NCBI RefSeq assembly: GCF_963921235.1
Contig: NC_086108.1
Coordinates: 37,572,001-37,636,000 of the forward strand
Direction: 5' to 3'
DNA length: 64,000 bases
Source: Mobula hypostoma
Lineage: Eukaryota
The notes beneath the pieces are model-generated. The model searched no databases. It had not been told where the DNA came from and was given only the letters and a program-made list of their open reading frames with translations. A program made the translations under genes and the position numbers. Positions 5,743 to 64,000 of this stretch are shown in pieces. The stretch's first letter is position 1. Each line of letters starts with the position of its first letter.

Positions 5743-7390
5743 CAGTGCCTATAAAAAGTATTCATCCCTCCTTGGAAGTTTTCAAGCTTTATTGATTTTC
5801 AATATTAAATCACAGTGGATTTAATTTGGCTTTTTGTCACTGATCAACAGAAAAAGATACTTTCATGTCAAACTGAAAAAAAGATCACGACAAAGTGATC
5901 TAAATTACGTTTGTAATTACAAACATAAAACACAAAAAAATTGATTGCAATAAGTATTCACCTCCTTTAATATGACACACCAAATCATCAGTGGTACAGC
6001 CAATTGGTTTTAGAAGTCACATAATTAGTTAAATGAAGATCTGCTTTTGGAGACCTGTGTGCATCAAGGTGTTTCAATTGACTGTAGTAAAAATACACCT
6101 GTACCTGGAAGGTCCAGCTGCTGGTGAGTCAGTATCCTGGCAAAAACTACACCATGAAGACAAAAGAAAACTCCAAGCAACTCTGTGAAAAGGTTATTGA
6201 AAACACAAGTCAGGAGATGGATAAAAGAAAATTTCCCCAAGTCACTGAATATCCCTTGGGGTACAGTTAAGTCAGTCATCAAGAAATGGAAAGAATGTGG
6301 CACAGCTGTAAATCTGCCTCGAGCAGGCCATTCTCAAAAACTGAGTGATTGTGCAAGAAGGGGACTAGGGAGGGAGGCCACCAAGAGACCTATGACAGCT
6401 CTGAAGGAGTTACAAGCTTCAGTGTCTGAGATGGAAGAGACTGTGTACACAAAACCTCTTGCCTGGGTGCTTCACCGGTCGCAGCTTTATGGGAGAGTGG
6501 CAAAGAGAAAGCCACTGTTGAAAAAAAACTCACATGAAATCTTAGCTAGAGTTTGCCAGAAGGCATGTGGGAGACTCTGAAGTCAGTTGGAAGAAGGTTC
6601 TATGGTCTAACGAAACCAAAATTGAGCTTTTTGGTCATCAGACTAAATGCTATGTTTGGCATAAGCCAAACACTACACATCATCAAAAACACACCATTCC
6701 TACTGTGAAGCGTGGCGGTGGCTGCATCATATTGTGGGGATGCTTCACTGCAGCAGGCCCTGGAAGGCTTGTGAAGGGACAGGATAAAATGAATACAGCA
6801 AAACACAGGGAAATCCTGGAGGAAAACCTGATGCAGTCTGCAAGAGAACTGTGATTTGGGAGAAGATTTGCTTTCCAGCAAGACCATAACCCAAAGCTGA
6901 AAGCCAAAGCTACACAGGAATGGCTTATAAACAACAAAGTTAATGTCCAGGAGTGGCCAAGTCAGAGTCCAGACCTCAATCCAATTGAGAATTTGTGGCT
7001 GGACTTGAAAAGGGCTGTTCACTGACAATTCCTATGCAATCTGACAGAGCTTGAGCAGTTTTGTAAAGACGAATGGGGAAAAATTGCAGTGTCCAATTGC
7101 AAGCTGATGGAGACCTATCCACACAGACTCAAAGCTCCTATTGCTGCCAAAGGGACATTTATTAAATACTGACTTGAAGGGGGTGAATACTTATGCAATC
7201 AATTATTTTGTGTTTTATATCTGTAATTAATTTAGATCACTTTGTAGAGATCTGTTTTCACTTTGACACGAAGGAGTATTTTTCTGTTGATCGGTGTCAA
7301 AAAAGCCAAATTGAATCCACTATGATTCAATGTTGTCAAACAATAGAACATGAAAAATTCCAAGGGGGTAAATACTTTTTATAGGCACCG
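5743..7390 (+). mobile_element. Full-length Tc1 (IR/DR type, Passport-like) DNA transposon
   Basis: TA|CAGTGCCTATAAAAAGTATTCA ... AATACTTTTTATAGGCACCG; ~220-bp inverted repeats with inner direct repeats (AAGTATTCACC ~5952, GGTGAATACTT ~7182). Confidence 0.93.
6154..7172 (+). pseudogene. Tc1 DD34E transposase pseudogene
   Basis: MKTKE...NLPRAG...LYGRVAKRKPLL...WKKVLWSNETKIELFG...FQQDHNPK...[15 protein letters not shown]...KY*; frameshifts, an in-frame stop, and first catalytic D changed to N. Confidence 0.92.
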
Positions 7391-11949: not shown

Positions 11950-14545
11950 GAGAGAAATACCTGGTCAGGTGTTGAGAGACTGTGCAGCCCAGCAACAGAG
12001 GTCTTAATGGACTTCTTTAATATTTCTTTGGAACAATGCACTGTCCCTGCAGCCTTCAAAGGCAACCACTATCATTCCAATGTCCAAGAAAGCAAAGGTA
12101 ACAGGGCTAATGGATTACTGCCCAGTGGCACTGACTTCAACAATCATCAAGTGCTTTGAGCAGCTTTTAATGGATTGTATAAAATCCCCTCTTCCACCTA
12201 CATTGGACCCTTTCCAGTTTGCCTGCCACTCAAACCGGTCCACTAATGATGTCATATTGTCAGCCCTCCACTTTGACCTGTCCTTCCTAGAAATCAATGT
12301 CTTATACGCCAGGATGTTGTTCATCAATTTCACTCATATTTTAATACAGTCATTCCTCAGAGGCAGGTGGGTAAATTGTAATCACTGGGACTCAACACCT
12401 CTTTCTGTAACTAGATCTTGGACTTCTTGACAGAAAGACCCCCATTCAGTCTGAATTGTCAGCAACACCTCAAGCTCGATCACACTGATCACTGGTGCAC
12501 CCCAGGGCTGTGTGCTCAGCCCACTTCTGTTCACACTGCACTGCCAGATCCAGCTCAAACTGTACCATCAAGTTTGCTGATGATTATACGGTAGTTGGTC
12601 TCATCATTAGCAAAGCCTCTAAACCTCCTCTTTGTGTGATGACTCATCATTAACAACGATGAGTTGGCATACAATGAAGAGATATAGAAGCTTGTCAAAT
12701 GATCAAAGAACAACTACTTGAGGCTACGTCCACACTAGACCGGATAATTTTGAAAACGCCGGTTTCGAGTAAAATCAGCAGGCGTCCACACCGCGTTTTT
12801 CAAAATATCTCGGTCCACATTAGAATGGATACTTGGGCAAATCTCCTCCAACTGGGCATGCACGGGACACACAGAAAACAAGCGAAGAGGAAACGGTATA
12901 CTTGGTGTGTGTTTGCCCAGTTACAGACTAGAAAAACTTTAAAGGAATTGCTGTTGGCTCTCGCGCAGGAGGACTTAAAACTAAACAAACGAACACTGGA
13001 GCGTATGGAGGCAACCGACAGGGAGTTCACGGACAGTATGACCCGGCTGACGACGAACATTGAAAAACTGACTAATTCTGTTGCATTAATAAAACACCTT
13101 GTTAAATGGATAAAACATGTCTGCATCAGTGTTATCTTGTATTGCCATACAACATTACATTAGGCTGTTACACATCTATTGTCAGAGAAGTACTTGCATA
13201 AATAGGTAAACCACCTTCATACAAGCAAGGACAGAAAACAAGGCAAAGTGAGTATACATATTTATTCAGTAAGCTATGGGTCAAAGGATTTGGTGAGTAC
13301 ATTTCTAAATCTTCTGGCTTCAGTCTCGTTGCCGTCTGTTCTGAAATTGTTGGGTTGTGTGGGGGGTTGCGTTCAAGAAAACAACGAAATCCGCACTGTC
13401 GCAATCTGTTCTGGCACATCATGACAGCGTTTTAAAATAGTCAAAAAAGCTTACTTTACAATTTAACTCTCACAGCGTTCACACCGACTGCGCGTTATAA
13501 CAGCCGTCCGGCAGTGCTTGCGCAGTACCAAGCAGAAGCAGAATAAGCATTACTGTTGTGGTGTTGTCATGACAGTGTTTTTAAATATCTCTGTTTACCC
13601 TGTCTTCACTACAATGTGCAACAATCGTTTTCAAATTTACACACTCTAGAGAGTGTTTTAGAAAAGCTCCATTTTCGGGGGATGAAAACGATTTCAATGC
13701 GGAGAGAGGGTCAAAACAAAGAGAAAAAGCTTCATTTTCAAAATTATCTGGCATAGTGTGGACGTAGCCTGGGTCTCAATGTGGACTTCAGGAAGGCACA
13801 GGTCAACCACTCTCTATATTGCATATCGATAGCTGCCATGGAGGGAGTGAAGAGCACAAAGTTCCTTGGTGTACATGTAACAGACGATCTAACCTGGACC
13901 CACACCTTCTCACTAGTCAAAAAGACAGGGCAGCGCCTACATTTTCTGGGGAAATTGAGGCTTGCAAGTCTTCCCCACCCCCATTCTAGCAGCTTTCTAC
14001 AGGAGCACCATCTAGTGTCCTGTCTGGCTGCATCATTGTGTGGTATGGAAGCTGTAAGGCATCAGACATTATGACGCTACAGATTACAGCTGAGAGGATC
14101 ATGAGGGTTTCCCATTCCCCCTATTTGAGACATTTACTGGGAGCATTGTATATGAAGAGTCCAAAGCATTGTTGAGGATTTCTTACCACCTATCTCACAA
14201 CCTCTTTGACCCACCAGCAAAAGGAAGGAGGTAGAGAAGCATCAGGACTAGGACTACCAGATAGGGTAACAGCTTCTTCCCTCAGGTTGTGAGACTAATG
14301 AATACCCTCTCACCACTGAAGTCTCATCACTAGGTCAACGAGCTGTTTACTGTTTACCTGTGCTGTGCACTACATGCATTTTGAATTAGTTTTTATTAAT
14401 TTATTTACAGTAATATTTTGATTTATGTGCTGTGTGATACATGGTTTGTGGGTGTACCATGGTCTGGAGGAACCTTGCTTCATTGGGTTGTACGTATGTA
14501 CAGTCAGATAACAATAAAGTTGAACATGAGCTTGACTTGAACTTG
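11950..14545 (+). mobile_element. Rex1/Babar LINE RT and 3' UTR, split by a Harbinger insertion
   Basis: DYCPVALTSTIIKCFEQL, LDPFQFA, GAPQGCVLSP, KFADD, KFLGVHVTDDLTW; tail aataaagttgaac...ttgaacttgaa. Confidence 0.88.
12722..13769 (+). mobile_element. Non-autonomous PIF/Harbinger DNA transposon
   Basis: TIRs GGCTACGTCCACACTA / TAGTGTGGACGTAGCC; flanks TGA/TGG (3-bp TSD with one mismatch); same family as 55027-55748. Confidence 0.85.
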
Positions 14546-39684: not shown

Positions 39685-39850
39685 AACCGACAAAGCTGGA
39701 AGAACTCAGCGCTCCAGGCAGCATCTATGGAAAAAAGTACATTCGATGCTTTGGGACGAGACCCTTTGTCAGTGCTGATGAAGAGTCTGGGCCTGAAATA
39801 TCAACTTTACTCTTCCATAGATGCTGCCTAGCCTGCTGAGTTCCTCCAGC

Positions 39851-39907
<57 letters not shown>

Positions 39908-39946
39908 CTTGGATTTCCAGCATCAGCAGATTTCCTTTTGTTTGTG
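39685..39946. mobile_element. Penelope-derived fold-back insert with degenerate hammerhead cores
   Basis: 15-bp TSD ACTGGCTCATGGATC (39670-39684 and 39947-39961); palindrome centred at ~39773. Confidence 0.8.
39853..39905. repeat. (TG)n microsatellite
   Basis: About 26 uninterrupted TG units. Confidence 0.97.
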
Positions 39947-40549
39947 ACTGGCTCATGGATCCCCAATTTCTTCCTCCTGTGGTCAATAATTAGCTCTTTG
40001 GTTTTGCTGACGATCAGTGAGAGGTTGTTGTTGTGGCACCACTCAATTAGATTTTCAATCTCCCTCCTGTATGCTGATCCCACCACCTTTGATACTGCCA
40101 ACAACAGTGGTGTCAAACTTAAATCAACTTAAATCAAAGCCTCAAAGTGTACAAGGAAGAGGACAGGGTTGAAAGTGGATGATGTGGCAACTCTTGTAGT
40201 TGTATATAAATTCTATGGTGAAATAGAATGGATTCAATCAAGGAAATTACAAAACAGACAGTGAAAAAGAGGCTTTAGAGGAGGCCAATGTGATTGATGC
40301 TGTCATAAACAAGGAGGTAGAAAACTGTAGCACATTCCCTGAGAGACAATACAATTCGTGACTTGAATAGTTTCACTCAATTTCTGCAAAACAAGTAAAA
40401 CCACATGGAAAGTAGGGATTTTTTATGAATGGGGGACACTGACATCAACAGCATTGTTGTTGACATTGTTCAAGTTCTTTGTTATATAGTCTGGAATGAG
40501 CCAGAATCCTGGAAATTCAGTTTAAAGTTCAAAGTAACTTTATCTACTT

Positions 40550-43150: not shown

Positions 43151-43365
43151 TTGAGAGACTCTGTAGATCTCTACTGTGTACCATACACAAGCTTCCCATT
43201 TATTTTCTTGCAGGCACACACAGGAAAATGAAAAAATACAAAAGAATCCATGAAATCCACAGAAAAGCCACATACTACAAAGACCAACTAATATCCAATG
43301 TGCAAAAGAGGACAAATTGCACAAATAATGAAAATAGTGAACAAGTATTACTGAAATACATTAGC

Positions 43366-43612
43366 TACAGAGACCCCAAAAGTGAGTTCACAGGCTGCAT
43401 ATTCCCCGAGAGTGAGTCCACGGGGTACAGAGACCCCGAGAGTGAGTCCACGGAGTACAGAGACCCCGAGAGTGAGTCCACGGGGTACAGAGACCCCGAG
43501 AGTGAGTCCACAGGGTACAGAGACCACGAGAGTGAGTCCACAGGGTACAGAGACCCCGAGAGTGAGTCCACAGGGTACGGAGACCCCGAGAGTGAGTCCA
43601 CAGGGTACAGAG
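43366..43612. repeat. 30-bp minisatellite, ~8 copies, inside a Rex1 3' UTR fragment
   Basis: Unit TACAGAGACCCCGAGAGTGAGTCCAC(G/A)GGG. Confidence 0.95.
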
Positions 43613-43869
43613 GCAGTTCAGTTCTGAGATGAGTGAAGCCGGTCCAGGAGTCCAATGGCTGCAAGGCAACCACTGTCCCCAATCCTGGCTGTTGAAGTTT
43701 TAATTAGTTTTCGCACAATAATGTGTGTGCCTAGTGTTAACTAGAATCTGACACAAGTTGATAGCAGACAAGCAGGATTTTCTTGCTGAAGAACAAACTC
43801 TCCTACAGCATTCCAGGTGTGTATTGGAGTTGGTGGAAATGTGGATTGGATAGGCTCACCTCTTTGTGG

Positions 43870-47439: not shown

Positions 47440-50400
47440 GAACCAAAAGAGAGGGAGGAGGGGAGTACTCTAAGATAGGCTAAAACAAAGGGGCATGAAA
47501 CTTCCTCTACCCAGCATCTTGTTAGCAAATGTACAATCTTTGGAGAACAAGTACCTAAGGGTATGATTGCTATTTTGGAGGGAAATGAACAATTGCTGCG
47601 TTCTCTGCTTCAGGGAGACATAGCTCATTCTGGACAGACTGGATACACTTGTTAGACCTGAAGTCTTCTCGATACACAGGTTTGACCAAAAAATTGGGGT
47701 CTGTGTTTCATGATAAACTCTTCATGGTGCTCAGATTGCAGTGGCTTTGTCACACTCCTGTTCGCCCAACCAGGAACACCAAATGATTGACTACTGTCCA
47801 TTTTACTTACCAAGAGAGTTCTCCTCCGTGATCCTGACCACAGTTTACATACCACAAAAGGCCAATGTTAAACAGGTACTTGACGTATTGAGTACTGTCA
47901 CTGACAAACAAGAAACTGCCTACACTGATGTCTTTCAAATCATTGTCAGGGACTTCAATCAAACTTGTTTGCTTGATTGAAGAAACTTCTGTCCATTTAT
48001 CATCAGCATATCACCTGCAGCACCAGGGGCCTCTATACACTTGACCACTGCTATATTACAATTAGAAATGCCTGATGTTCCATGCCTAGGCCACATTTCA
48101 GGTAATCTGATCACTTGACTGACCTCCTCCTACCTGTATTCTGGCAGAGACTAAATAGCAAGGCTCCAGAGATAAGCACAACAAAGAGGTTGTGCTTATC
48201 TGAAGCAAGACTATGGGACTGAACTGAGTAAATTGGGTCATGTTCAAGGACTCATCAAAGGATCTGAACCAATACACCACAGTTTTCACAGCCTATATAA
48301 AAGCAGTCATAGAAGAGTGTGGCCCGGCAATATCATTCAAAGTCTTCCCCAACCAGAAGCACTGGATGAACCATAACATCCACAATCTGCTGAGGGACAG
48401 ATTAGTGGCATTCAGGTCTGGTGACCAAGCAGAATACAAGAGGTTCAGGTGAAATCTCCAGAAACCCTTCTCATGGGTCAAGTGGCAATTCCAGACCAAA
48501 CTTGAATCCAGAAGGATGCTCAACAGCCCTGGCTGGTTTTGAATGCTATCTATCGCCTACTACAAAAGGACAAAAGCTGACAACAAGGCTTTGATCCCAG
48601 ATGAGCTCAATGTCTTTTATGCCCTCTCTGACCATCAAAACATGGAAGCACCTTCATGAATTCCCACAGCCCCTGATGGGTGTGAGCCCATGGAAAGCTA
48701 CTGGCTCAGACAAGGTACCAGGCCGAGTGCTAAAGACCTGTGCTGATCAACTGGCTGGAGTGTTTACTGATAGCTTTAACCTCTCACTTCAGCAGTCTAC
48801 CTGCTTGAAGCAGGCTTCAATTGTACCTGTGCTAATAAGAACATGGTAACCTGCGTCAATGGCTATAGTCCAATAGCACTTACATCCACTGTGGTGAAGT
48901 GCTTTCAGAGGTTGGTAAAAGAAGCCTATCAACTCCTGCCTGAAAAGCATCTTGAAGCCACTCCAATTTCCCTACCATCACAACAGGTCTACAGCAGGTA
49001 CCATTTCATTGGCTCTTCACTCAAGCCTGGAACATCTAGACAGTGAAGATCCGTCCATCAGGATGTTTTTCATTGACTACAGCTTGGCAGTCAATACTAT
49101 CATCCCCTTGAAACTAATCAATAAGATTCAACACCTTGGCCTCAATAACCCCTTGTGCAATTGGACCCTTGGTTTCCTCACTTGCAGACCCTAGTCACTT
49201 CAAATTGGCAAAAACATCTCCTCCAGAATCTCCATCAGTACAGGTGCATCAGAAGGCTGCTTGCTTAATTCGCCGCTCTACTGATCCTAATCTTAAGACT
49301 ATGAGGCTAAGCACAGCTCTAATGCCATATTTAAATCTGCTGATGACTTCATTGTCATTTGCTGAATCAAAGGTGGTGACAAATCAGCACGTAGGAGGAA
49401 GATTGATAATCCGGTTAGGTGGTACTACAGCGCCAACATCTTACTCAATGTCAGCAAGACTAAGGAGCTGATTATTGATTTTAGAAGGAGGAAGCCATAG
49501 GTCCATGCGTCAGATATCATAGAAGGATCAGAGGTGGAGAGAGCCAGCAGTTTTAAATTTTCCTGTGTTATCATTTCAGAGGATCTGTCCAAACTTTCTT
49601 AGAAGTTTGTGAAGATTCAGCATGACATCTAAAACTTTGACAAACTTCTATAGATGCGTGGTAGAGCATATATTGACTGGTTGTATCATGGCCTGGTATA
49701 GAAATACCAATGCCCATGAATGGAAAAGTCAACGAAAGGTAGTGGAATGCACACAAAATGCTGGAAGAACCCAGCGGGCCGAGCAGCATCTATGGAAAAA
49801 GGTAGAGTCAGCATTTCTGACCAAAACCCTTCGACAGGACTTCCTGTCTGCCCATCGCCGCTCTCTGGTGCTGCTCCCACCCTCCTTTTTCTTTCTTCTA
49901 AGGCCTTCTGTCTTATTTACCAATCAACTTCCCAGCTCTTTACTTCATCCCTCCCCCTCAAGGTTTCACCAATCACCTGGTGTTTCCTTCTCCCCTTTCC
50001 TTACCTTTTAAATCTACTCCTCAGCTATTTTCTTCAGTCCTGCTGAAGGGTTTCGGCTTGAAAAGACGACTGTACTTTTTTCCATAGATGCTGCCTGGCC
50101 TGCTGAGCTCTTGCAGCATTTTGTGTGTGTTGCTCTGATTTCCAGCATCTGCAAATTTTCTCGTTTGTGGAAAGGTGGTGGATATGACCCAGTATGTCAC
50201 AGGTAAAGCTCTCCTTACCATATATCTACACATATTGCTGTTGCAGGAAAGTGGCATCCTTGAGCAAGGACTACCACCATCCTGGCCATGCTCTCTTCTT
50301 GCTGCTGCCATCAGGAAGAAGGTACTGGAAGTTCAGGACCCACGCCACCAGGTTCAGGAACAGTTATTACCCTTCAACCATCAGACTCTTGAACCAAAGG

Positions 50401-53099: not shown

Positions 53100-53526
53100 T
53101 TCTAAATTTCTATAGATGTATGATGGAGAGCACTCTGACTGGTTCTAGCACAGCCTGGTATGGGGACTCCAATTCTCAGGATTGAAGAGGCTGCAGAGGG
53201 TGTATACAGAGCCAGCTGCATCAGGAAATACCATTCCCACTGTCAAGGACATATCCAAGAGGCAGTGCTTCAGGAAGACTGCATCCATCAGCAAGAACTC
53301 TCCCCATCCAGGATATGCCCTGTTCTCATTGCTGCCATCAGGGAAGAGGTACAGGGACCTGAAGACCCACATTCAACAATTTAGAAAAAAACTTTCCCTC
53401 AGGTCTTGGCCTGAAACATTGACTGTTTACTCTTTTCTATAGGTGATGCCTGGCCTGCTGAGTTCCTCCTGCATTTCATGTGTATTACTCAGATTTCCAA
53501 CATCAGTAGATTTTCTCTTGTTTGTG
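53100..53526 (+). mobile_element. Rex1 fragment followed by a Penelope-type 3' fragment
   Basis: HPGYALFSLLPSGKRY, then ggtcttggcctgaaacattgac...gattttctcttgtttgtg. Confidence 0.7.
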
Positions 53527-53650
53527 ATATTAAATCTGATTTTGATTCTATATCACATTTTCAGAGCATATTATCATAACACTGTTCAACTCGGCTGATT
53601 TAATCCCTTCATAGCTGATAGCCCTTTCCAAACATCACCTATTTAATACC

Positions 53651-53915
53651 GCAAACACGAGGAAACCTGCAGATGCTGGAAATTCAAGCAACACACGAAA
53701 AATGCTGGTGGAATGCAGCAGGCCAGGCAGCATCCATAGGAAGAGGTACAGTTGATGTTTTGAGCCAAGACCCTTCGTCAGGACTAACTGAAAGAAGAGA
53801 TAGTAAGAGATTTGAAAGTGGGAGGGGGAGGGGGCGATCCAAAATGATAGGAGAAGACAGGAGGGGGAGGGATGGAGCTAAGAGCTGGAAAGTTGATTGG
53901 CAAAAGGGACACCAG
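53651..53915 (-). mobile_element. Penelope-like element terminal (pLTR) fragment
   Basis: Same sequence family as 62624-63334. Confidence 0.8.
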
Positions 53916-55026: not shown

Positions 55027-55748
55027 GGCTACGTCCACACTAGACCGGATAAATTGGTAACCGAAGCTTTTTCTCTTTGTTTTGACCCTCTTTCCATGCT
55101 GAAATGGTGTTTCCCTCCCTCGAAAATGGAGCTTTCCTAAAACACTCTCCAGTGTGTTTAAATCTGAAAACGCCAGTCGGGCGTTGTAGTGTGTACAGGG
55201 TAACCGGAGGTTTTAAAAAAACCTCTCGCCCCTTTCATCGGTGAAGAGACTACGCTATAGGAAATGTTTCCAGGGTGACCCCTCTGTGGGAGTGGGGAGG
55301 ATGTTGGTGGGGCCACCTGGGGGCTCTGTGTGTCCGTATGTGCAGCTATTGTAGTGGCTATGAGGCTGGTATTGTGTCAGTTTTACAATGTTTGTCATCA
55401 GCCGGGTCACACTGTTCGTGAACTCCTTGTCGGTTGCCTCCATATGCTCCAGTATTTGTTTTTTCAGTTTTAAGTCCTCCTGCGCGAGAGCCAACAGCAG
55501 TCTGTTATTTGGCAATTTCCTTTTAAGTTTTTCTGGTCTGTAACTGGACAAACACGCACCAAGTATACCGTTTCCTCTTTGCTTATTTTCTGTAGATGTG
55601 TCCTGCACATGCCCAGTAGGAGGCGATTTGCCCAAATACCCGTTTTAATGTGGATGGAGGTATTTTCAAAAACGCCTGGTGTGGACACCTATTGTTTTTA
55701 CGTGAATCCGGCGTTTTCAAAATTATCCAGCCTAGTGTGGATGTAGCC
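55027..55748 (-). mobile_element. Non-autonomous PIF/Harbinger DNA transposon
   Basis: TAA|GGCTACGTCCACACTAG ... CTAGTGTGGATGTAGCC|TAA: TIRs and a TAA TSD. Confidence 0.9.
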
Positions 55749-56085
55749 TAAGATGCAGTTCCTAACAGCTGATTTACCGCAGCTCAAGGATACAGTATAA
55801 GACAATGGGCTGTTTAATTTGGCTTGTTTCAAATGGATAAGTGGACTATAAGTTGCTCAGTTCAAGGAAGCTTGCAGACCAGATGGAACCAAATACTTAG
55901 CATATCAAATAACTGATCTATTAATGTTGGGAGTTTTAGGTGCTCAGAAAAGTTAGTTTTACAGTAGTAGCTGAGATCTATTGTATGTATCCAAGATGCT
56001 TTTAGACCATTTGTGTATATCGGAGGAAATATCATACATATGTGAAGTCATCCAAATAGAAGAAAGGGTACAGAATTGTAGAGAG

Positions 56086-56392
56086 TGTCAGGCCTACCCA
56101 GGAAGGTGCCTCGTAGTCACGACCTAGCTAACAAGAGTCACTTGCCACTCATTTCCAACACATCACCTGCAGCCAAATTAAATCCCGCTTTCATTCATAA
56201 CCCTTGTTCACTTATGTCAACCAGCCAGCCTCAACTTCTTGGTTCTAGCCTTCAGTTACCTTGTAATGTTAAGTATCAGTTCTCTTTTGTTTTGTGGTCC
56301 CTTGTGGCTTGATATTTTATTATTAAAGAGATTGCTCATTGCTAATTATTTCCACTGCTCTGTGTTTCAAACTTCCTCCACATTTCCTAACA
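56086..56392 (+). mobile_element. Solo LTR (307 bp), probably from an LTR retrotransposon
   Basis: GAGAG|TGTCAGG ... CCTAACA|GAGAG: TG..CA termini, 7-bp imperfect inverted repeat, 5-bp TSD, ATTAAA at ~56323. Confidence 0.8.
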
Positions 56393-57062
56393 GAGAGAAG
56401 TCCAGGCATATTAGGAACATCTAGAACCATGAGGTGAATTAGAATCCATTCCTCTGGTTTTGATTTCTGCAATGAAGGATTTGTTTGTCTGCAGCTTGTG
56501 GGTGTGCTTTATAGTTTATAGGAATTGTACCCGTGTTTAGGCAATCCTTTATCTTTTGTGCTTGTGAAATGGTTTGTTATTTAGAAATAGTTTGTAATTT
56601 GGAAATGTTTAAGATGGAAATACTCAATTTTAAATGTGTTTTAAGAATGTTTTGTGGATTTAAAGGCGTGTCACTGAAAATAAACAAACTATTTTTAAAC
56701 TACTTTGTTGGCTGGAAGAATCTCCCCCTTGGTAGGGATAGGGGACCAACTGCTCGAATAGTGGGTATTGTCAGCTGAACTCACCATGGAGAAAAACCAG
56801 AGAAGTGAACTAGTCTTTGAAGATTAGGTAGTTACAGTATAATCTCCCTTCAGTTAGAACACTTGTGAGTATTTAGATCCAATAAGTTTAAGGTCTTTGT
56901 TTGAGTTTCGAACTTTGCGATCAGCAAAGTCAATACCATCACAGTAGGCACTTGTTGGTTAGGTTATACCAACAGTATTATTTTAGAAATAATTATTATT
57001 TGTCAGTAGTCCAATTTGGAGAGCTCTCAACCAGTGCTATGCTCCCCACCTAATACTATAAA

Positions 57063-58242
57063 ATGGTCAACATCCTGTTTTCCAGCAGTTGCTCAGGCAA
57101 ATATTAGTCGATATTATAAAAGTGTTAATAATAAAGCAGAAATATGATATAATACCCAGCTCTCAAATTGAATGTGAATATTTTTTACTTCAAGTCCGAG
57201 ACTGGAATGATAAAGGGATAAAACATAGAGTAGGATTTAGATTAGACAAACCATGCCCCACCGTATCACTTTCTGGAATCGGATCATCACAAATTGTACC
57301 AGTTTCAAACAATGTTGCAATAATTCGTGCCTGGAGACAACAAATTGGTCCTTTTTAGCAAAAAACCAAGCACCTGCTTGGAGACTATATGCTTGTGTGA
57401 TAGAAGCTGGTGATCAATATCTTAATCATGATGCATAGGGATACCATGTATTCCTTCCAGGCACACGAGGTAGTGCCCACGCCATTAAATCCTAGAGGTA
57501 CGAAAAAAGCTACAGAACAGATGCTTGGGAACATGCACTAGAATTAAGGATTGACTATAGCCAGTAAAAGAAGAAGATGGGGACAGGTTCCTGTATAGGG
57601 AGCTACTGCAGTTTCCCCAGGACAAATTTCTCATCCAGGTTTTGGAACTTTGACTATTCAAAGTTTGCAGGCAGAATGTACTGCACTTCCAGGTGATGCT
57701 GAAGGAAATCTGAAGTGGCTACATCAGAATGCTGGGAGGTTACAGGCCTTCTAGTCCAGTCATACTCCCCAACATACTCAGCAATTCTTATTAATGTTAT
57801 TTTCCATAGCCTTGGTACCCACCTCCACATGAATGTGGAAATCCGTGCCAGATACAGACATGGATTTATAAACAAAAAAATGGTGGGATGAATGCAGAGG
57901 CCTTAGAACTGTGTTGAGTAGAGAGTCAAAAGCCAGGGCTTAATAACATCTTAGAGGATGGGAGAAAAATTGGCAGGAGCAGACTGGGACCTAGTTCACT
58001 CTCTAGTGTTACCCCTTCATCCTGGTGATACCCTCTACATCATGTAGGGAATGGCCCTCAATCAACACCCTATACATGAACGATTTCAGGTTTTTGAAGA
58101 GACCCTGCGCACCCGCATGGTGGGAGCAGGTTTACAGCTCATTTCCACACAACGGCAACAAAATGCCAACATACAGTTCTCCCCTTTCCCTTTAAAGAAG
58201 GGGTTCCAACCTTTTTTTAATGCCCTGGACCCCTATCATTAA
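57063..58242 (+). pseudogene. gag: Foamy-type Gag remnant (capsid/central domain)
   Basis: From 57653: TIQSLQAECTALPGDAEGNLKWLHQNAGRLQAF*SSHTP aligns ungapped to PFV [39 protein letters not shown]. From 57958: MGEKLAGADWDLVHSLVLPLHPGD vs PFV LGMMLSGQNYQLVSGIIRGYLPGQ. PFV sequences recalled, not searched. Confidence 0.72.
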
Positions 58243-58444
58243 CCAACCCCCAAGACTGGAACCCTTGCTTTAAAGGGTCAGTAAACAAGTTCTCAAACCA
58301 ACCCTGTTCCTTGCGTCGATCACATTCGCAACATTCTCCTACACCAGTCCCTTAGCAGGAAAGACTTAATCAACAAACCAAAACAGTTCACTGGAGAATG
58401 CCTGCCTTAGGAAGAGATATTCACCCACAAACAAGATGGCTACT

Positions 58445-61400
58445 ATTGGCTGATTTAATTCAACCCAACCCCATTCTCCTGCATTCTCTGCACAACCTTT
58501 GATGTCCTGATTAATCAAGAACCTATCAATCTCCACCTTAAATATACCCGATGACTTGGCCAGTACAACCAATTATGACAAAGAATTCCACAGATTCACC
58601 ACCTTCTCTCTAAAGACTCTTTTCCTCATCTCTGTTCTAAATAGATAACCCTCAACTTTGAGTCTATTTCCTCTGGTCTTTAACACCCCTACTGTAAGAA
58701 ACATCCTGCCCACACCCACTCTATCCACACCCTTTAATATTTGATAGGTTTCAATGAGATCCCCCCCATTCTTCTAAACTCTAGACAGACCCAGAGCCAA
58801 ATGCTCTACAAAATTTAACCCTTTCATTCCTGGGATCATTCTCGTGAACTTCCTCTGGACTCTCTCTGATGTCAGCACATCCTTTCTTAAATAAGGGGCC
58901 TAAAACAGCTCACAATACTCCCAAGTGTGGTCTGACCAATGCCTTACAAAGCCTCAGCATTACATTCTTGCTTCTGTATTTTTGTCCTCTCAAAATGAAT
59001 GCTAACATTGCATTTGTCGTCTTTACCACTAACTCAACCTGCAAGTTAACCTTTAGGAAATCCTGCATGAGGACTCACAAGTTCCTTTGTACCTCTGTAT
59101 TTTGAATTTTCTCTCTGTTTATAAAATAGTCTATGCCTTTTTTCATTCTACCAAAGTGCATGACCATACACTGTCTAAGTCCTTCTGCAGACACCCTGCT
59201 TCCTCAACATTACATACCTTTCCACCTATCGTTGTATCATCCACAAACCTGGACACAAAGGCAAAAATTCCTTCATCCAAATCATTGACATAAAACACGA
59301 AAAGCAGCAGTCCCAACACCAACCCCTGTGGTACACCACTAGTTACCGGTAGCCACTCAGAATATTTTTCCCAAGCTCAAGAGTTTTCCTGTTTTCTTAA
59401 GCTAGACAGATAGATAACTCCAGCACTGTTGAAGGTGGTTTTATTATTCACCAACACATTACAGTACGCAAGGGGCTGTTGTAAAAGGACAGTATTTCTC
59501 AGTGCTCCAGTGAAAAGCAGATTCAAATATTGATTGAAATTCCTTCGACTTCTAACGTGTTTCTAACTACTAAATGATTATGCACATATGATATAAAATG
59601 GCCACCCTGATGATGGAAGCTAAATGCTTAACAATGCAATAATGAGTAATCATCAGCAGCAGTGAAGCTCTAGTAATTAGAGATATGAAAAAAAAACACA
59701 TCAGATAATACATAACAGGCTCATTTATTCCCACTCTTTGCCTCCTGCCAATCTTCAATCCATTTTAGTACCTTTCCCAAAATACCATGGGCTCTTATTT
59801 TGTTAAGCACTCTCATCTGGCGCACCTCAGGGGTGTGGGCTTAGCCCACTGCTCTATTCTCTGTATACACATGATCGTATGGCTAGGCATAGCTCGAATA
59901 CCATCTACAAATTTGCTGACGATACAACAATTGTTGGTAGAATCTCAGGTGGTGACGAGAGGGCATACAGGAGAGAGATATGCGAACTAGTGGAGTGGTG
60001 CTGCAGCAACAACTTGGCACTCAGCGTCAGTAAGACGAAAGAGCTGATTATGGACTTCAGGAAGGGTAAGATGAAGGAACACAAACCAATCCTCATAGAG
60101 GTATCAGAAGTGGAGAGAGTGAGCAGCTTCAAGTTCCTGGGTGTCAAGATCTCTGAGAATCTAACCTGGTCCCAATACATTGATGTAATCATAAAGAAGT
60201 CAAGACATCAGCTATTCTTTATTTGGAGTTTGAAGCGATTTGGCATGTCAGCAAATACACTCAAAAACTTCTATAGTTGCACCGTGCAGAGTATTCTGAC
60301 AGGCTACATCACTGTCTGGTATGGAGGGGCTACTGAACAGGACCGAAAGAAGCTGCAGAAGTTTGTAAATCTAGTCAGCTCCATCTTGGGCACTAGCCTC
60401 CAAGGTACCCAGGACATCTTTAGGGAGCGGTGTCTCAGAAAGGCAGCAACCATTATTAAAGACCTTCAGCACCCCAGGGCATGCCCTTTTCTCACTGTTA
60501 CCATCAGGTAGGAAATACAGAAGCCTGAAGGCACACGCTCAGCGATTCAGGAACAGCTTCTTCCCCTCTGCCATCCGATTCCTAAATGGACTTTGAAGCT
60601 TTGGCCACTACTTCACTTTTTAAAAAAAATACAGTATTTCTGTTTTTGCACATTTTTTAATAAGCTATTCAATATATGTAATTGATTATTTATTATGTTT
60701 TTTTTCTCTCTCTGCTAGATTATGTATTGCATTGAACTGCTGCTGCTAAGTTAACAAATTTCACGTCACATGCCAGTGATAATAAACCTGATTCTGATTC
60801 CGATCTGTGGCACCTTATCAAAGGCCTTCTGAGAATCCAAATAAACAACCTCCATTGACTCTCCATTGCTTATCCTGTCTGTTATTTCGTCAAAGAATTC
60901 CAACAGATTTGTCAGGCAAGATTTCCGCTTTAGAAAACCATGCTGACTTTGACCTATTTTATCACATGCCTCCAAGTACCCTGAAATCTTATCCTCCGTA
61001 ATAGACTCCAACATCTTTCCAACCACTGAAGTCAGACTAACTGGCCTGCAATTTCCTTTCTTCGGTCTCCCTCCCTTCTTAAAGATTGGAGTAACATTTG
61101 CAATTTTCCAGGCTTCAGATTCTTGAAAGATCATTACTAATACCTTCACAATCTCTTCAGTTACCTCTTTCAATACCCTGGACTGTAGTCCATGTGACTT
61201 ATCTACAGTACTTTCAGACTTTTCAGCTACCCAAGCACCTTTTCCTTAGTAATAGCAGCTCCATGCACTTTTGTCCCAGCAATTCTGCATTTCTGACATT
61301 CTGCTAGTGTCTTTCACAGTGAAGACCTACACAAAACATTTATTATGTTCCTCGGTCATTTCATTGTCCTCCATTACTACCTCTCCCGTGACATTTTCCA

Positions 61401-61860
61401 GCAGTCCGATATCCACTCTCATCTCTGTTACTCCTTATATCTCTGAAAAATCTTCTTGTATCCTCTTTTAGATAAATTATGAATTTACCTTCATATTTCG
61501 TCTTTTCTTTCTTTATGGTTTTTTTAGTTGCCTCAGTTGATTTTTTTAAAGCTTCTCAATCCTCAACATTTGCACAAATATTTGCTATATTTTATACTCC
61601 CTCTTTCTTTTCATGATGTCTTTGACTTCCCTTGTCAGCCAGCTACCCACAAGGATTCGACATCTTCTGATCCTATGTCACCTCTAGGGATTTGATTTCA
61701 GTCTTACCAATAGAGCCACCCCACCCGCTCTGCCATGCTGCCTGACCTTTAAATACAATGCATCTCCTTTGCTGTTAAGCTCCCAACTATGATCTTCTTT
61801 CAACCACGACATCATACCTGCCAATTTCTAATTGCTCTACAATATCATCTACCTTATTTC
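58445..61860 (-). mobile_element. CR1 LINE inserted into the provirus, itself interrupted
   Basis: ORF 60766-61173 (WKIANVTPIFKKG...RPVSLTS...SCLTNLLEFF...KAFDKVP); 3' end at ~58445. Confidence 0.9.
59817..60801 (+). mobile_element. 5'-truncated Rex1/Babar LINE nested in the CR1
   Basis: ORF 59879-60511 (YKFADDTTIVG...KFLGVKISENLTW); tail aataaacctgattctgattc. Confidence 0.92.
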
Positions 61861-62480
61861 AGTAGCACCAAGTACATGTGGCAAATTGATTATTTTGGCC
61901 AGTTTCTGGCATCCCAAGGCAACTTGCCTTATCTGAAAAATAATAGATATATTCTTGTGATAATTGGTCTTTATACGGGATATACATAGTTAATCTCCAT
62001 GACTTCTTGTAGCGAGATCACAACCTTCACAACACTTCAAAGCTCCATATTCCCATATGCTAGCACCCCTGTCCAGGTGACCCAGTGACATGCTGACCAG
62101 GGCTCTTCCTTCAGTGGTAAAGGCATTCAAGCCATGTGTAAGATGAAAAGGCATACAAGTAGAGTACAACACTCCACTCCAACTGCAATCAAGTGGCATG
62201 ATGGGGCAAAGCAATCAAGAGATTATATAAGGCCTGACAAAACTACTCTACTCCAGAAGCAAAGTTACCCCTGAGGTGCAACCGTCAGTAAACAAAGTGC
62301 CAATTCCGTAACATATAATGTTCACCTAAATCTAGCCCTGATTGCTAACTCAGGCCAACCATTGCCTACATCCAATATAATTCTCCTCAGGGAATTTCCA
62401 TCCCAGATTACCCTTGTTATCAATGATAGGACTGTGGTAATTGACAGCAGGAGGAGAAACAAGTCCATGCAAAACTATAA
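61861..62480 (+). pseudogene. pol: Foamy-type integrase remnant (catalytic core and C-terminal domain)
   Basis: WQIDYFGQF..SQG...YILVIIGLYTGYT*L; HADQGSSF; after a frameshift GIQVEYNTP...QSSGMMGQSNQEII*GLTKLL; CTD PSQITLVINDRTVVID. D (62095) to the E position (62204, now GGG) keeps the D-35-E spacing. Confidence 0.88.
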
Positions 62481-62654
62481 TCCAAAGATAACATCAAACC
62501 TGCCCCAGCAGGATTTTGGGTCCACCACGGAACACTTACATCTCAACGGAAAGGGGGTGGGGCGAGGTGTATTGAAATGATAAAACACATGTTTAAATCT
62601 GAAAAGCAATGAAAGAATTCCTGCAAGCCAGGCAGCATCTCTAGGAAGAGGTAC

Positions 62655-62690
62655 AGTTGACGTTTCAGGCCGAGACCCTTCGTCAGGACT
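62655..62690 (-). ncRNA. Minimal hammerhead ribozyme, antisense copy
   Basis: Minus strand AGTC-CTGACGA-A-GGGTCTCGGCCT-GAAA-CGTC^AACT; one stem I mismatch. Confidence 0.7.
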
Positions 62691-63198
62691 AACTGAAGGA
62701 AGAGTTAGTAAGAGATTTGAAAGTGGGAGGGGGAGGGGGAGATCCAAAATGATAGGAGAAGACAGGAGGGGGAGGGATGGAGACAAGAGCTGGACAGGTG
62801 ATAGGCAAAAGGGATATGAGAGGATCATGGGACAGGAGGCCCAGGGGGAAGGAAAAGGGGGAGGGGGGGGAAACCCAGAGGATAGACAAGGGGTATAGTC
62901 AGAGGGACAGAGGATGAAAAAGGAGAGAGAGAGAAAGAATGTGTGTATATAAATAAATAACGGATGGGGTACGAGGGGGAGGTGGGGTATTAGCGGAAGT
63001 TAGAGAAGTCAATGTTCATGCCATCAGGTTGGAGGCTACCCAGACGGAATATAAGGTGTTGTTCCTCCAACCTGAGTGTGGCTTCATCTTTACAGTAGAG
63101 GAGGCCATGGATAGACATATCAGAATGGGAATGGGATGTGGAATTAAACTGCCCTCCCCCTCCCACTTTCAAATCTCTTACTAGCTCTTCCTTCAGTT

Positions 63199-63234
63199 AG
63201 TCCTGATGAAGGGTCTCGGCCCGAAACGTCGACT
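63199..63234 (+). ncRNA. Minimal type I hammerhead ribozyme (Penelope pLTR type)
   Basis: AGTC-CTGATGA-A-GGGTCTCGGCCC-GAAA-CGTC^GACT: stem I AGTC/GACT, intact core, stem II GGG/CCC, palindromic ACGT stem III, GUC cleavage triplet. Confidence 0.85.
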
Positions 63235-63874
63235 GTACCTCTTCCTAGCGATGCTGCCTGGCCTGCTGCGTTCACCAACAACTTTGATGTGTGTTGCTTG
63301 AATTTGCAGCATCTGCAGAATTCCTGGTGTTTGCGAAAGAATTCCTGTTCACATACATTGCCCACAGATAATACATTCAAAATGGGCAGTTTTCTGAGCA
63401 AGACAGACTCAACCTCCAGGAAGCAATGTTGCTCTTACTATCAATATTTTTGCTTATAATGATGTTGTTTAGTGCTGACTTACTTACCATTTGCTCTTTC
63501 ACAAAGTCACATTTACTATGGAAATTGTCTCATCTGACACAGATAACCCAAAAACTTAATGACTCAGAAATTATTAAATTCAGGGGATCCGTGAGCATGA
63601 TGATTCTAATTTAAATATCACTAAATGGCCCTTATCTCTTGGTCATTTGTGAACGAATATTACTGGATCCTTAGTCCTTGCCTCTGGCAAAGTGATTGTC
63701 CACTTCATTCACTCTGAACACATTGCAGAGAAAGGAACGTAGATGCATGGGAAGGCAAAGAATCACTTATGGAAATGATTAATAACATCCCAACAAAACT
63801 GAAAGATTCCAGCACACAAATTCTGGTACTGAGATTCCAGCCCTGACCCAGTATAGCTATACCGATCAGTTATA

Positions 63875-64000
63875 CTAGATAGGGTGTTATGTAATAAACC
63901 AGAGGCGATTAGGGAGCTTAAGGTAAAGGAACCCTTAGGAGCCAGTGATCACAATATGATCGAGTTCAACTTGAAATTTGATAGGGAGGAAGTAAAATCT
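63875..64000 (+). mobile_element. CR1 endonuclease fragment, running off the window end
   Basis: ILDRVLCNKPEAIRELKVKEPLGASDHNMIEF (SDH motif). Confidence 0.85.

Follow-up and report, generated by a model that had tools for sequence, protein, structure and literature searches.

We identified the remnant of an endogenous retrovirus (ERV) on the plus strand of a 64-kb window, by which we mean the whole stretch of DNA analyzed, and the entire locus is very probably a foamy-like provirus that became endogenous and is now defunct. Homology was established for two fragments, a Gag capsid block and an integrase core, together with their order, strand, and decay. The gag block comes first and the integrase follows, both are broken by stop codons and frame changes, and the segments assigned to the provirus are single-copy within the 64-kb window. 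The present-day locus encodes no functional protein. A previous sequence-only reading had described a foamy-type Gag remnant here, and the proviral remnant extends beyond what was described.

Foamy-like ERVs are already known across vertebrates, and this locus adds a further member. Because RT is absent from the locus, the standard RT-based classification is inapplicable. We file the locus as a foamy-like ERV remnant and assign it to no named genus, because membership rests on the absent RT and the strict mammalian motifs are altered here.

A foamy-type Gag central domain

The capsid block lies at 57892-58134 (+) and corresponds to the C-terminal half of the foamy Gag central capsid-like domain (CtD-CEN). 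For Pfam queries, frames were translated singly, with X at stop codons. The trimmed piece 57874-58161 matched Gag_FV_central (PF20672) with an E-value of 1.1e-5 over profile positions 90-161 of 173, aligning 71 residues to 72 profile positions; its score of 25.6 bits falls below the curated cut-off of 30 bits for this family. The untrimmed 533-codon frame also matched PF20672 (E 2.3e-4). Among the three untrimmed plus-strand frames of 56900-58500, this was the one that matched Pfam, with Gag_FV_central as the sole family, and none of the three frames on the opposite strand of 55700-58400 matched any Pfam family.

In the PDB, the PFV Gag central domain structures 5M1G and 5M1H were the best two of six matches for 57874-58161 (E 0.083 and 0.19). 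The alignment to them is ungapped over 57892-58068, with 14 of 59 residues identical (24%). Four stops interrupt the block (57904, 57919, 57952, and 58045), and the 96-codon piece as a whole holds five. Judged from the sequence, we regard this Gag central domain as homologous to PFV CtD-CEN. The foamy-type identity proposed by the sequence-only reading is supported by the PF20672 match, by the top rank of the PFV structures in the PDB, and by a PFV-like integrase located downstream on the same strand. The profile comparison that it recommended yielded a significant match to Gag_FV_central, although below the curated cut-off. It had also named a better match to a Gypsy/Arc-type capsid as evidence to the contrary; at E<=10, neither Pfam nor the PDB listed a capsid family or chain of Gypsy/Arc/Ty3 or orthoretroviral type, in searches where HMMER filters drop most weak matches.

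The same reading had recognized two gap-free blocks of PFV similarity, which occupy different frames. The second (57958-58134) holds in substance, with the corrections that the similarity begins upstream at 57892 and does not stay entirely free of gaps up to its end; used alone, it misses 5M1G and 5M1H in the PDB, and the upstream 22 codons are required. The first (57653-57798) found no significant Pfam or foamy PDB match. It falls within 57653-57838 (+), a candidate for NtD-CEN, the N-terminal half of the capsid-like central domain, which is proposed mainly from its position just upstream of CtD-CEN and gave the same negative result in both databases. This candidate contains stops at 57752 and 57830. 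By eye only, TP (57764-57769) and LVP (57812-57820) resemble PFV residues 335-353 and 359-369, with a TP-to-P distance four residues shorter.

Positions of the assembly motifs

In PFV Gag, the PGQA motif occupies residues 431-434 and the YxxLGL motif residues 464-469, and position 464 is only Y or F in mammalian foamy viruses (PMC5102385). The locus reads PGDT at the PGQA position (58021-58032, +), in register and with P-G aligned to P-G in 5M1G/5M1H, which agrees with the earlier placement of PGD at 58021. At the YxxLGL position it reads MVGAGL (58117-58134, +), in which the Tyr and the first Leu are absent and only the final GL is retained. The distance from the P of the first motif to the last L of the second is 37 here versus 38 in PFV (431 to 469, PMC5102385); this spacing, together with the single-position gap that follows from the Pfam ranges, indicates that MVGAGL occupies the assembly motif. 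The same two observations bear out the suggestion that GAGL (58123-58134) is the end of that motif. The last residue that Pfam aligns, M at residue 82, pairs with profile position 161, which would map to Y464 if the profile contains no indels relative to PFV.

Each motif retains two of its four defining residues, and both are positional homologues rather than an intact PGQA or YxxLGL. Of the residues at the PFV domain interface (V394, I398, L410, M413, and L414; PMC5102385), which also anchor the PFV residue numbering of the 5M1G/5M1H alignment, L414 is identical, L410 is conservatively replaced by Met, and the positions of V394, I398, and M413 differ. The departures in the motifs may represent decay or true divergence, which are indistinguishable from one copy.

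The upstream part of gag

A stop-free frame of 98 codons at 57062-57355 (+) is a candidate for the Gag N-terminal domain by position alone. It returned no match in Pfam or the PDB at E<=10, and its best value in Atlas (0.77) is uninformative. Its length is not evidence, because 66 ORFs of at least 98 codons exist in the six frames of the window. Translation from the ATG at 57063 would run in a different frame from this ORF and reach a stop after 14 codons. EYFLLQVRDW (57176-57205) and IGPF (57344-57355), from which a weaker N-terminal similarity to PFV had been drawn, do occur at the places given; the similarity itself found no counterpart among Pfam or PDB matches. The Gag_spuma N-terminal Env-binding domain with its CTRS likewise had no match in Pfam or the PDB. 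Single-sequence AF2 models reached pLDDT values of 42.6 and 42.7 (the latter for the N-terminal ORF) and were too poor to use; no fold search with these low-confidence models reached E<=0.001 or Z>=5, a result that is uninformative either way.

The interval of 57063-58242 originally assigned to the Gag remnant does contain the Gag block, but its end falls within an inserted repeat of 70 bp and its starting ATG is out of the ORF frame.

An integrase remnant downstream of gag

A second proviral fragment, missed by the sequence-only reading, lies on the strand of gag, a short distance downstream of a 3.2-kb LINE insertion. It is an integrase catalytic-core remnant in two frames at 61873-62293 (+), recognized by the rve profile and by integrase cores in the PDB. 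The rve profile matched one of the three plus-strand frames, with an E-value of 3.4e-4 on the untrimmed 900-codon frame and 6.8e-6 after trimming, where the score of 26.7 compares with a curated cut-off of 32.6. All three PDB matches of the first frame were integrase cores (2x78, 3dlr, and 2x6n; E 0.11-0.13), which we take to be PFV integrase entries. For the next frame, integrases were two of the five PDB matches (3dlr and 3l2q, "PFV integrase"; E 0.15 and 0.41), outranked by two unrelated rhodanese-domain chains (E 0.015). Asp-containing motifs are seen at WQIDY (61879) and HADQG (62089), and in the PDB alignment of the next frame a non-acidic residue occupies the third catalytic position. 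The rve evidence is independent of the gag evidence, and we read the gag block and the integrase core, from their sequences, as parts of the same provirus.

Two further integrase pieces had been suspected, an N-terminal one at 58336-58461, ahead of the LINE, and a C-terminal domain at about 62422; both were rejected after finding no match in Pfam or the PDB.

Alternative origins of the two fragments

An unlikely alternative, which nevertheless survives best among those considered, is that the locus derives from a related non-foamy LTR element, such as a lokiretrovirus, another class III ERV, or a member of a Gypsy-derived lineage, with a capsid that scores on the foamy profile. The rve profile is generic, and the remnant also weakly picks up the IS481 and IS3 models. 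PFV as the top PDB integrase is a soft test, because the PDB holds few non-orthoretroviral integrases. RT, moreover, is missing from the locus, capsid folds are common to retroviruses (PMC5102385), and integrase domains have been repeatedly swapped between lineages (PMC7947760). The capsid evidence nevertheless argues for the foamy lineage. Besides the lack of Gypsy/Arc/Ty3 or orthoretroviral capsid matches at E<=10 noted above, the PFV central domain matches orthoretroviral CA weakly even by structure (PMC5102385), and an ungapped match at 24% identity to it therefore points to foamy viruses. Lokiretroviruses are defined by a MuLV/Ty3-like CA, a CGIN1-related integrase, and a fusion-protein-like Env, and their Gag is accordingly MuLV/Ty3-like (PMC7947760).

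Chance similarity in repeat-rich intergenic DNA would be consistent with the weak PDB E-values, with the 67 Pfam queries that were run, and with the chance matches that occurred at E 0.015. We consider it very unlikely, since, after correction for all 67 queries, the best E-value of 1.1e-5 still stands at about 7e-4, the foamy family had been predicted beforehand from the letters, and a second, independent retroviral domain was found in the expected order and on the expected strand. Least credible of all is a host gene co-opted from a foamy gag, for which there is a precedent reported in geckos (PMC6669660, bioRxiv 2020.12.18.423569) and which could account for the single copy in the window and the 98-codon stop-free stretch, but multiple stops and frame changes run through the capsid blocks, the ATG belongs to a different frame from that ORF, and ORFs of such length are common in the window (66).

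We therefore retain the dead foamy-like provirus as the preferred reading. Standing against it, both Pfam scores are under their curated cut-offs (25.6 versus 30 and 26.7 versus 32.6 bits), and no single PDB E-value is significant (0.083-0.41). Word-based homologue searches found no significant hit among 103, 2739, and 24 candidates. A search of 1.84 billion representatives produced a sole match, to a repeat-like protein of 3074 aa over 30 residues outside the capsid block, which looked unrelated and was not used.

Probable internal deletion and later insertions

After the capsid block, the locus has been reshaped by insertions and, in all likelihood, by a large loss. A 70-bp inverted-repeat insertion at 58198-58267 is flanked by an 8-bp target duplication (58190-58197 and 58268-58275), and its terminal 18-mers are complementary at 12 of 18 positions; presumably it is a hAT-type MITE. 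It is followed by a single-copy remnant at 58276-58466 (+) that likely crosses an internal deletion junction and has no meaningful Pfam or PDB match. A later LINE insertion of about 3.2 kb, which we assume to be CR1-like, then occupies 58467-61641 on the minus strand, with copies elsewhere in the window. Nested inside it, at about 59817-60803 (+), is another LINE recognized by the RVT_1 profile. The RVT_1 matches of these two LINEs (E 4.6e-8 and 2.2e-10) belong to the inserts and are not a proviral RT, and the Pfam profile search found no retroviral RT between gag and the integrase.

By arithmetic, once the inserts are subtracted, about 490 bases remain from the end of the capsid block (58134) to the integrase motif located at 61879. 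This length is too short to accommodate the remainder of gag together with protease, RT, and RNase H, and we infer an internal deletion of some kilobases; for comparison, PFV gag alone measures 1,947 nt (PMC5210030). The capsid-integrase spacing thus fits the earlier guess that the Gag C-terminus is deleted. The accompanying remark that a Cys-His zinc knuckle is lacking was accurate for the retained plus frames, with neither CX2CX4HX4C nor CxxC in any of the three plus frames of 57001-58470, but it carries no weight, as the region appears lost. Similarly, G+R makes up only 6.6-11.5% in the three frames of 58276-58460, giving no indication of GR boxes or the chromatin-binding sequence in a segment from which that region was likely lost.

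Downstream of the integrase, a further insertion at 62624-63334 is flanked by a 13-bp target duplication (62611-62623 and 63335-63347), has other copies in the window, and contains an internal inverted repeat. We assume that it is Penelope-like. Repeats of the same family with paired inverted copies are located at 62624-63334, 49741-50169, 53402-53909, and 39692-39947; Penelope-like repeats with paired inverted copies are typical of ray genomes.

These features suggest the following history. An ancestral foamy-like virus would have entered the germ line by integration, and its Gag may have assembled the capsid in the manner of PFV, through a two-bundle central domain, an alpha5-alpha6 dimer face, and a PG/GL surface patch, as the PFV mechanism is described in PMC5102385. 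A later internal deletion would have removed the Gag C-terminus, protease, and RT-RNase H, and the provirus would have undergone, after integration, point decay and four insertions, namely the MITE, the two LINEs, and one further insert.

Proviral ends and env

No LTR-like repeat was shared between 55750-57063 and 61641-64000, and the 3' end of the provirus would lie past the window. A Lys-type PBS pattern matched twice in the window, both times far away from the locus, versus 1.33 matches expected. The single-copy 1.3 kb upstream of gag (55750-57062) could hold a 5' LTR and leader, and no primer site or partner repeat was found for it. Foamy_virus_ENV (PF03408) had no match after pol within the window. 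A hydrophobic stretch of 19 codons at 63429-63485 (+), at the putative position of a foamy Env leader, has a Kyte-Doolittle value of 2.59; a value of 2.5 is attained in 8 of the 119 windows that served as background, which puts the stretch roughly at the 5% level. The sequence that follows the last insert, 63348-63870 (+), is single-copy and represents a possible env start without profile support.

Comparison with known foamy elements

The locus shares with PFV the ungapped CtD-CEN helices (5M1G/5M1H; PF20672), the PG and the terminal GL, and the order of gag then integrase (3L2Q and 3DLR for the latter). It differs in being a pseudogene, in the positions of Tyr464, Leu467, Gln433, and Ala434, and in having no GR boxes, protease, or RT. 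If 57063 is the right start, about 357 codons separate it from the end of the capsid block, compared with residue 469 in PFV.

Compared by their descriptions, the coelacanth element CoeEFV and the amphibian, reptile, and bird EFVs (ERV-Spuma) resemble the locus as endogenous foamy elements with a recognizable foamy Gag and a compact gag, whereas they possess LTRs, a PBS, pol, and env with Pfam support of their own, none of which was found here. A Gag_spuma domain is reported in the amphibian EFVs (bioRxiv 2020.12.18.423569). The gag of CoeEFV measures 1,413 nt versus 3.3-3.4 kb for AcERV-type elements of teleosts (PMC5210030). The foamy-like ERVs of fish and sharks (AciFLERV, DrFV, CmiFLERV, and ERV-Spuma.0-Sca) are likewise foamy-related; they occur in aquatic vertebrates and are described as having no Cys-His boxes, but the AcERV-type gag is long and the teleost genes are given as having no match to known domains (PMC5210030). 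The ghostshark is reported with pol only (PMC5512871), and the catshark with an ERV-Spuma of three ORFs, the account stating no conserved Gag domain in catshark or jawless-fish genomes (PMC10699275).

The contrast between our match and these shark and fish reports may reflect tools, because earlier domain searches in fish and sharks may predate PF20672. In the portions of the literature available, we found no account of a ray or shark with a Gag central domain of PFV type, and the supplements of PMC10699275, PMC5512871, and PMC6001957 could hold the family.

A tentative proposal, which we hold to be possible but still doubtful, is that the host is cartilaginous, either a ray or a shark, and that the locus belongs to a cartilaginous-fish ERV family with a compact PFV-type Gag, a recognizable central domain, and a PFV-like integrase, nearer to the coelacanth/tetrapod lineage than to the long-gag FLERVs of teleosts. 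If so, either the foamy capsid architecture dates to the root of jawed vertebrates or a cross-class jump is recorded here. Foamy viruses are the main model for the deep history of retroviruses, and Gag is described as their fastest-evolving core gene (PMC5210030). Foamy-like ERVs have been reported from mammals, reptiles, birds, amphibians, coelacanth, teleosts, and cartilaginous fish (PMC6669660, PMC6955096); those of cartilaginous fish are known from pol, with gag reported as undetected or without a known domain (PMC10699275, PMC5512871). With a cartilaginous host, the locus would bear directly on how old the foamy capsid is and on the antiquity of individual motif residues (PG and GL are retained, Tyr is not). 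Because the foamy integrases of fish and of tetrapods plus coelacanth form separate groups (Wang and Han, PMC7947760), the integrase remnant makes the question of lineage testable. If the host is instead an amphibian, a coelacanth-like fish, or a teleost with a described family, the locus would be merely another decayed copy.

Genomic setting

The window has a GC content of about 40% and is dominated by repeats. The mixture of repeats resembles that of a ray or another elasmobranch, which the host may therefore be; none of ten repeat ORFs had an exact counterpart in the protein collection. Of its ORFs, 14 were scanned and five had Pfam matches, to LINE RT, Tc1-type transposase, and the LINE-associated ALKBH8_N; no host gene was recognized among the 14, and no tRNA genes or Rfam families were found in the window. 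A tandem array with a 30-bp period at 43336-43665 is open on both strands (178 codons on the plus strand) and has no Pfam match. Just upstream of the single-copy region that precedes gag, 55027-55749 is an element of about 720 bp, presumably of Harbinger type, that ends in inverted repeats of 17 bp and has TAA on either side, and it is related to 12721-13770. A remnant of a Tc1/Sleeping Beauty-type transposase is located at 6158-6854 (+; PF01498, E 1.6e-8).
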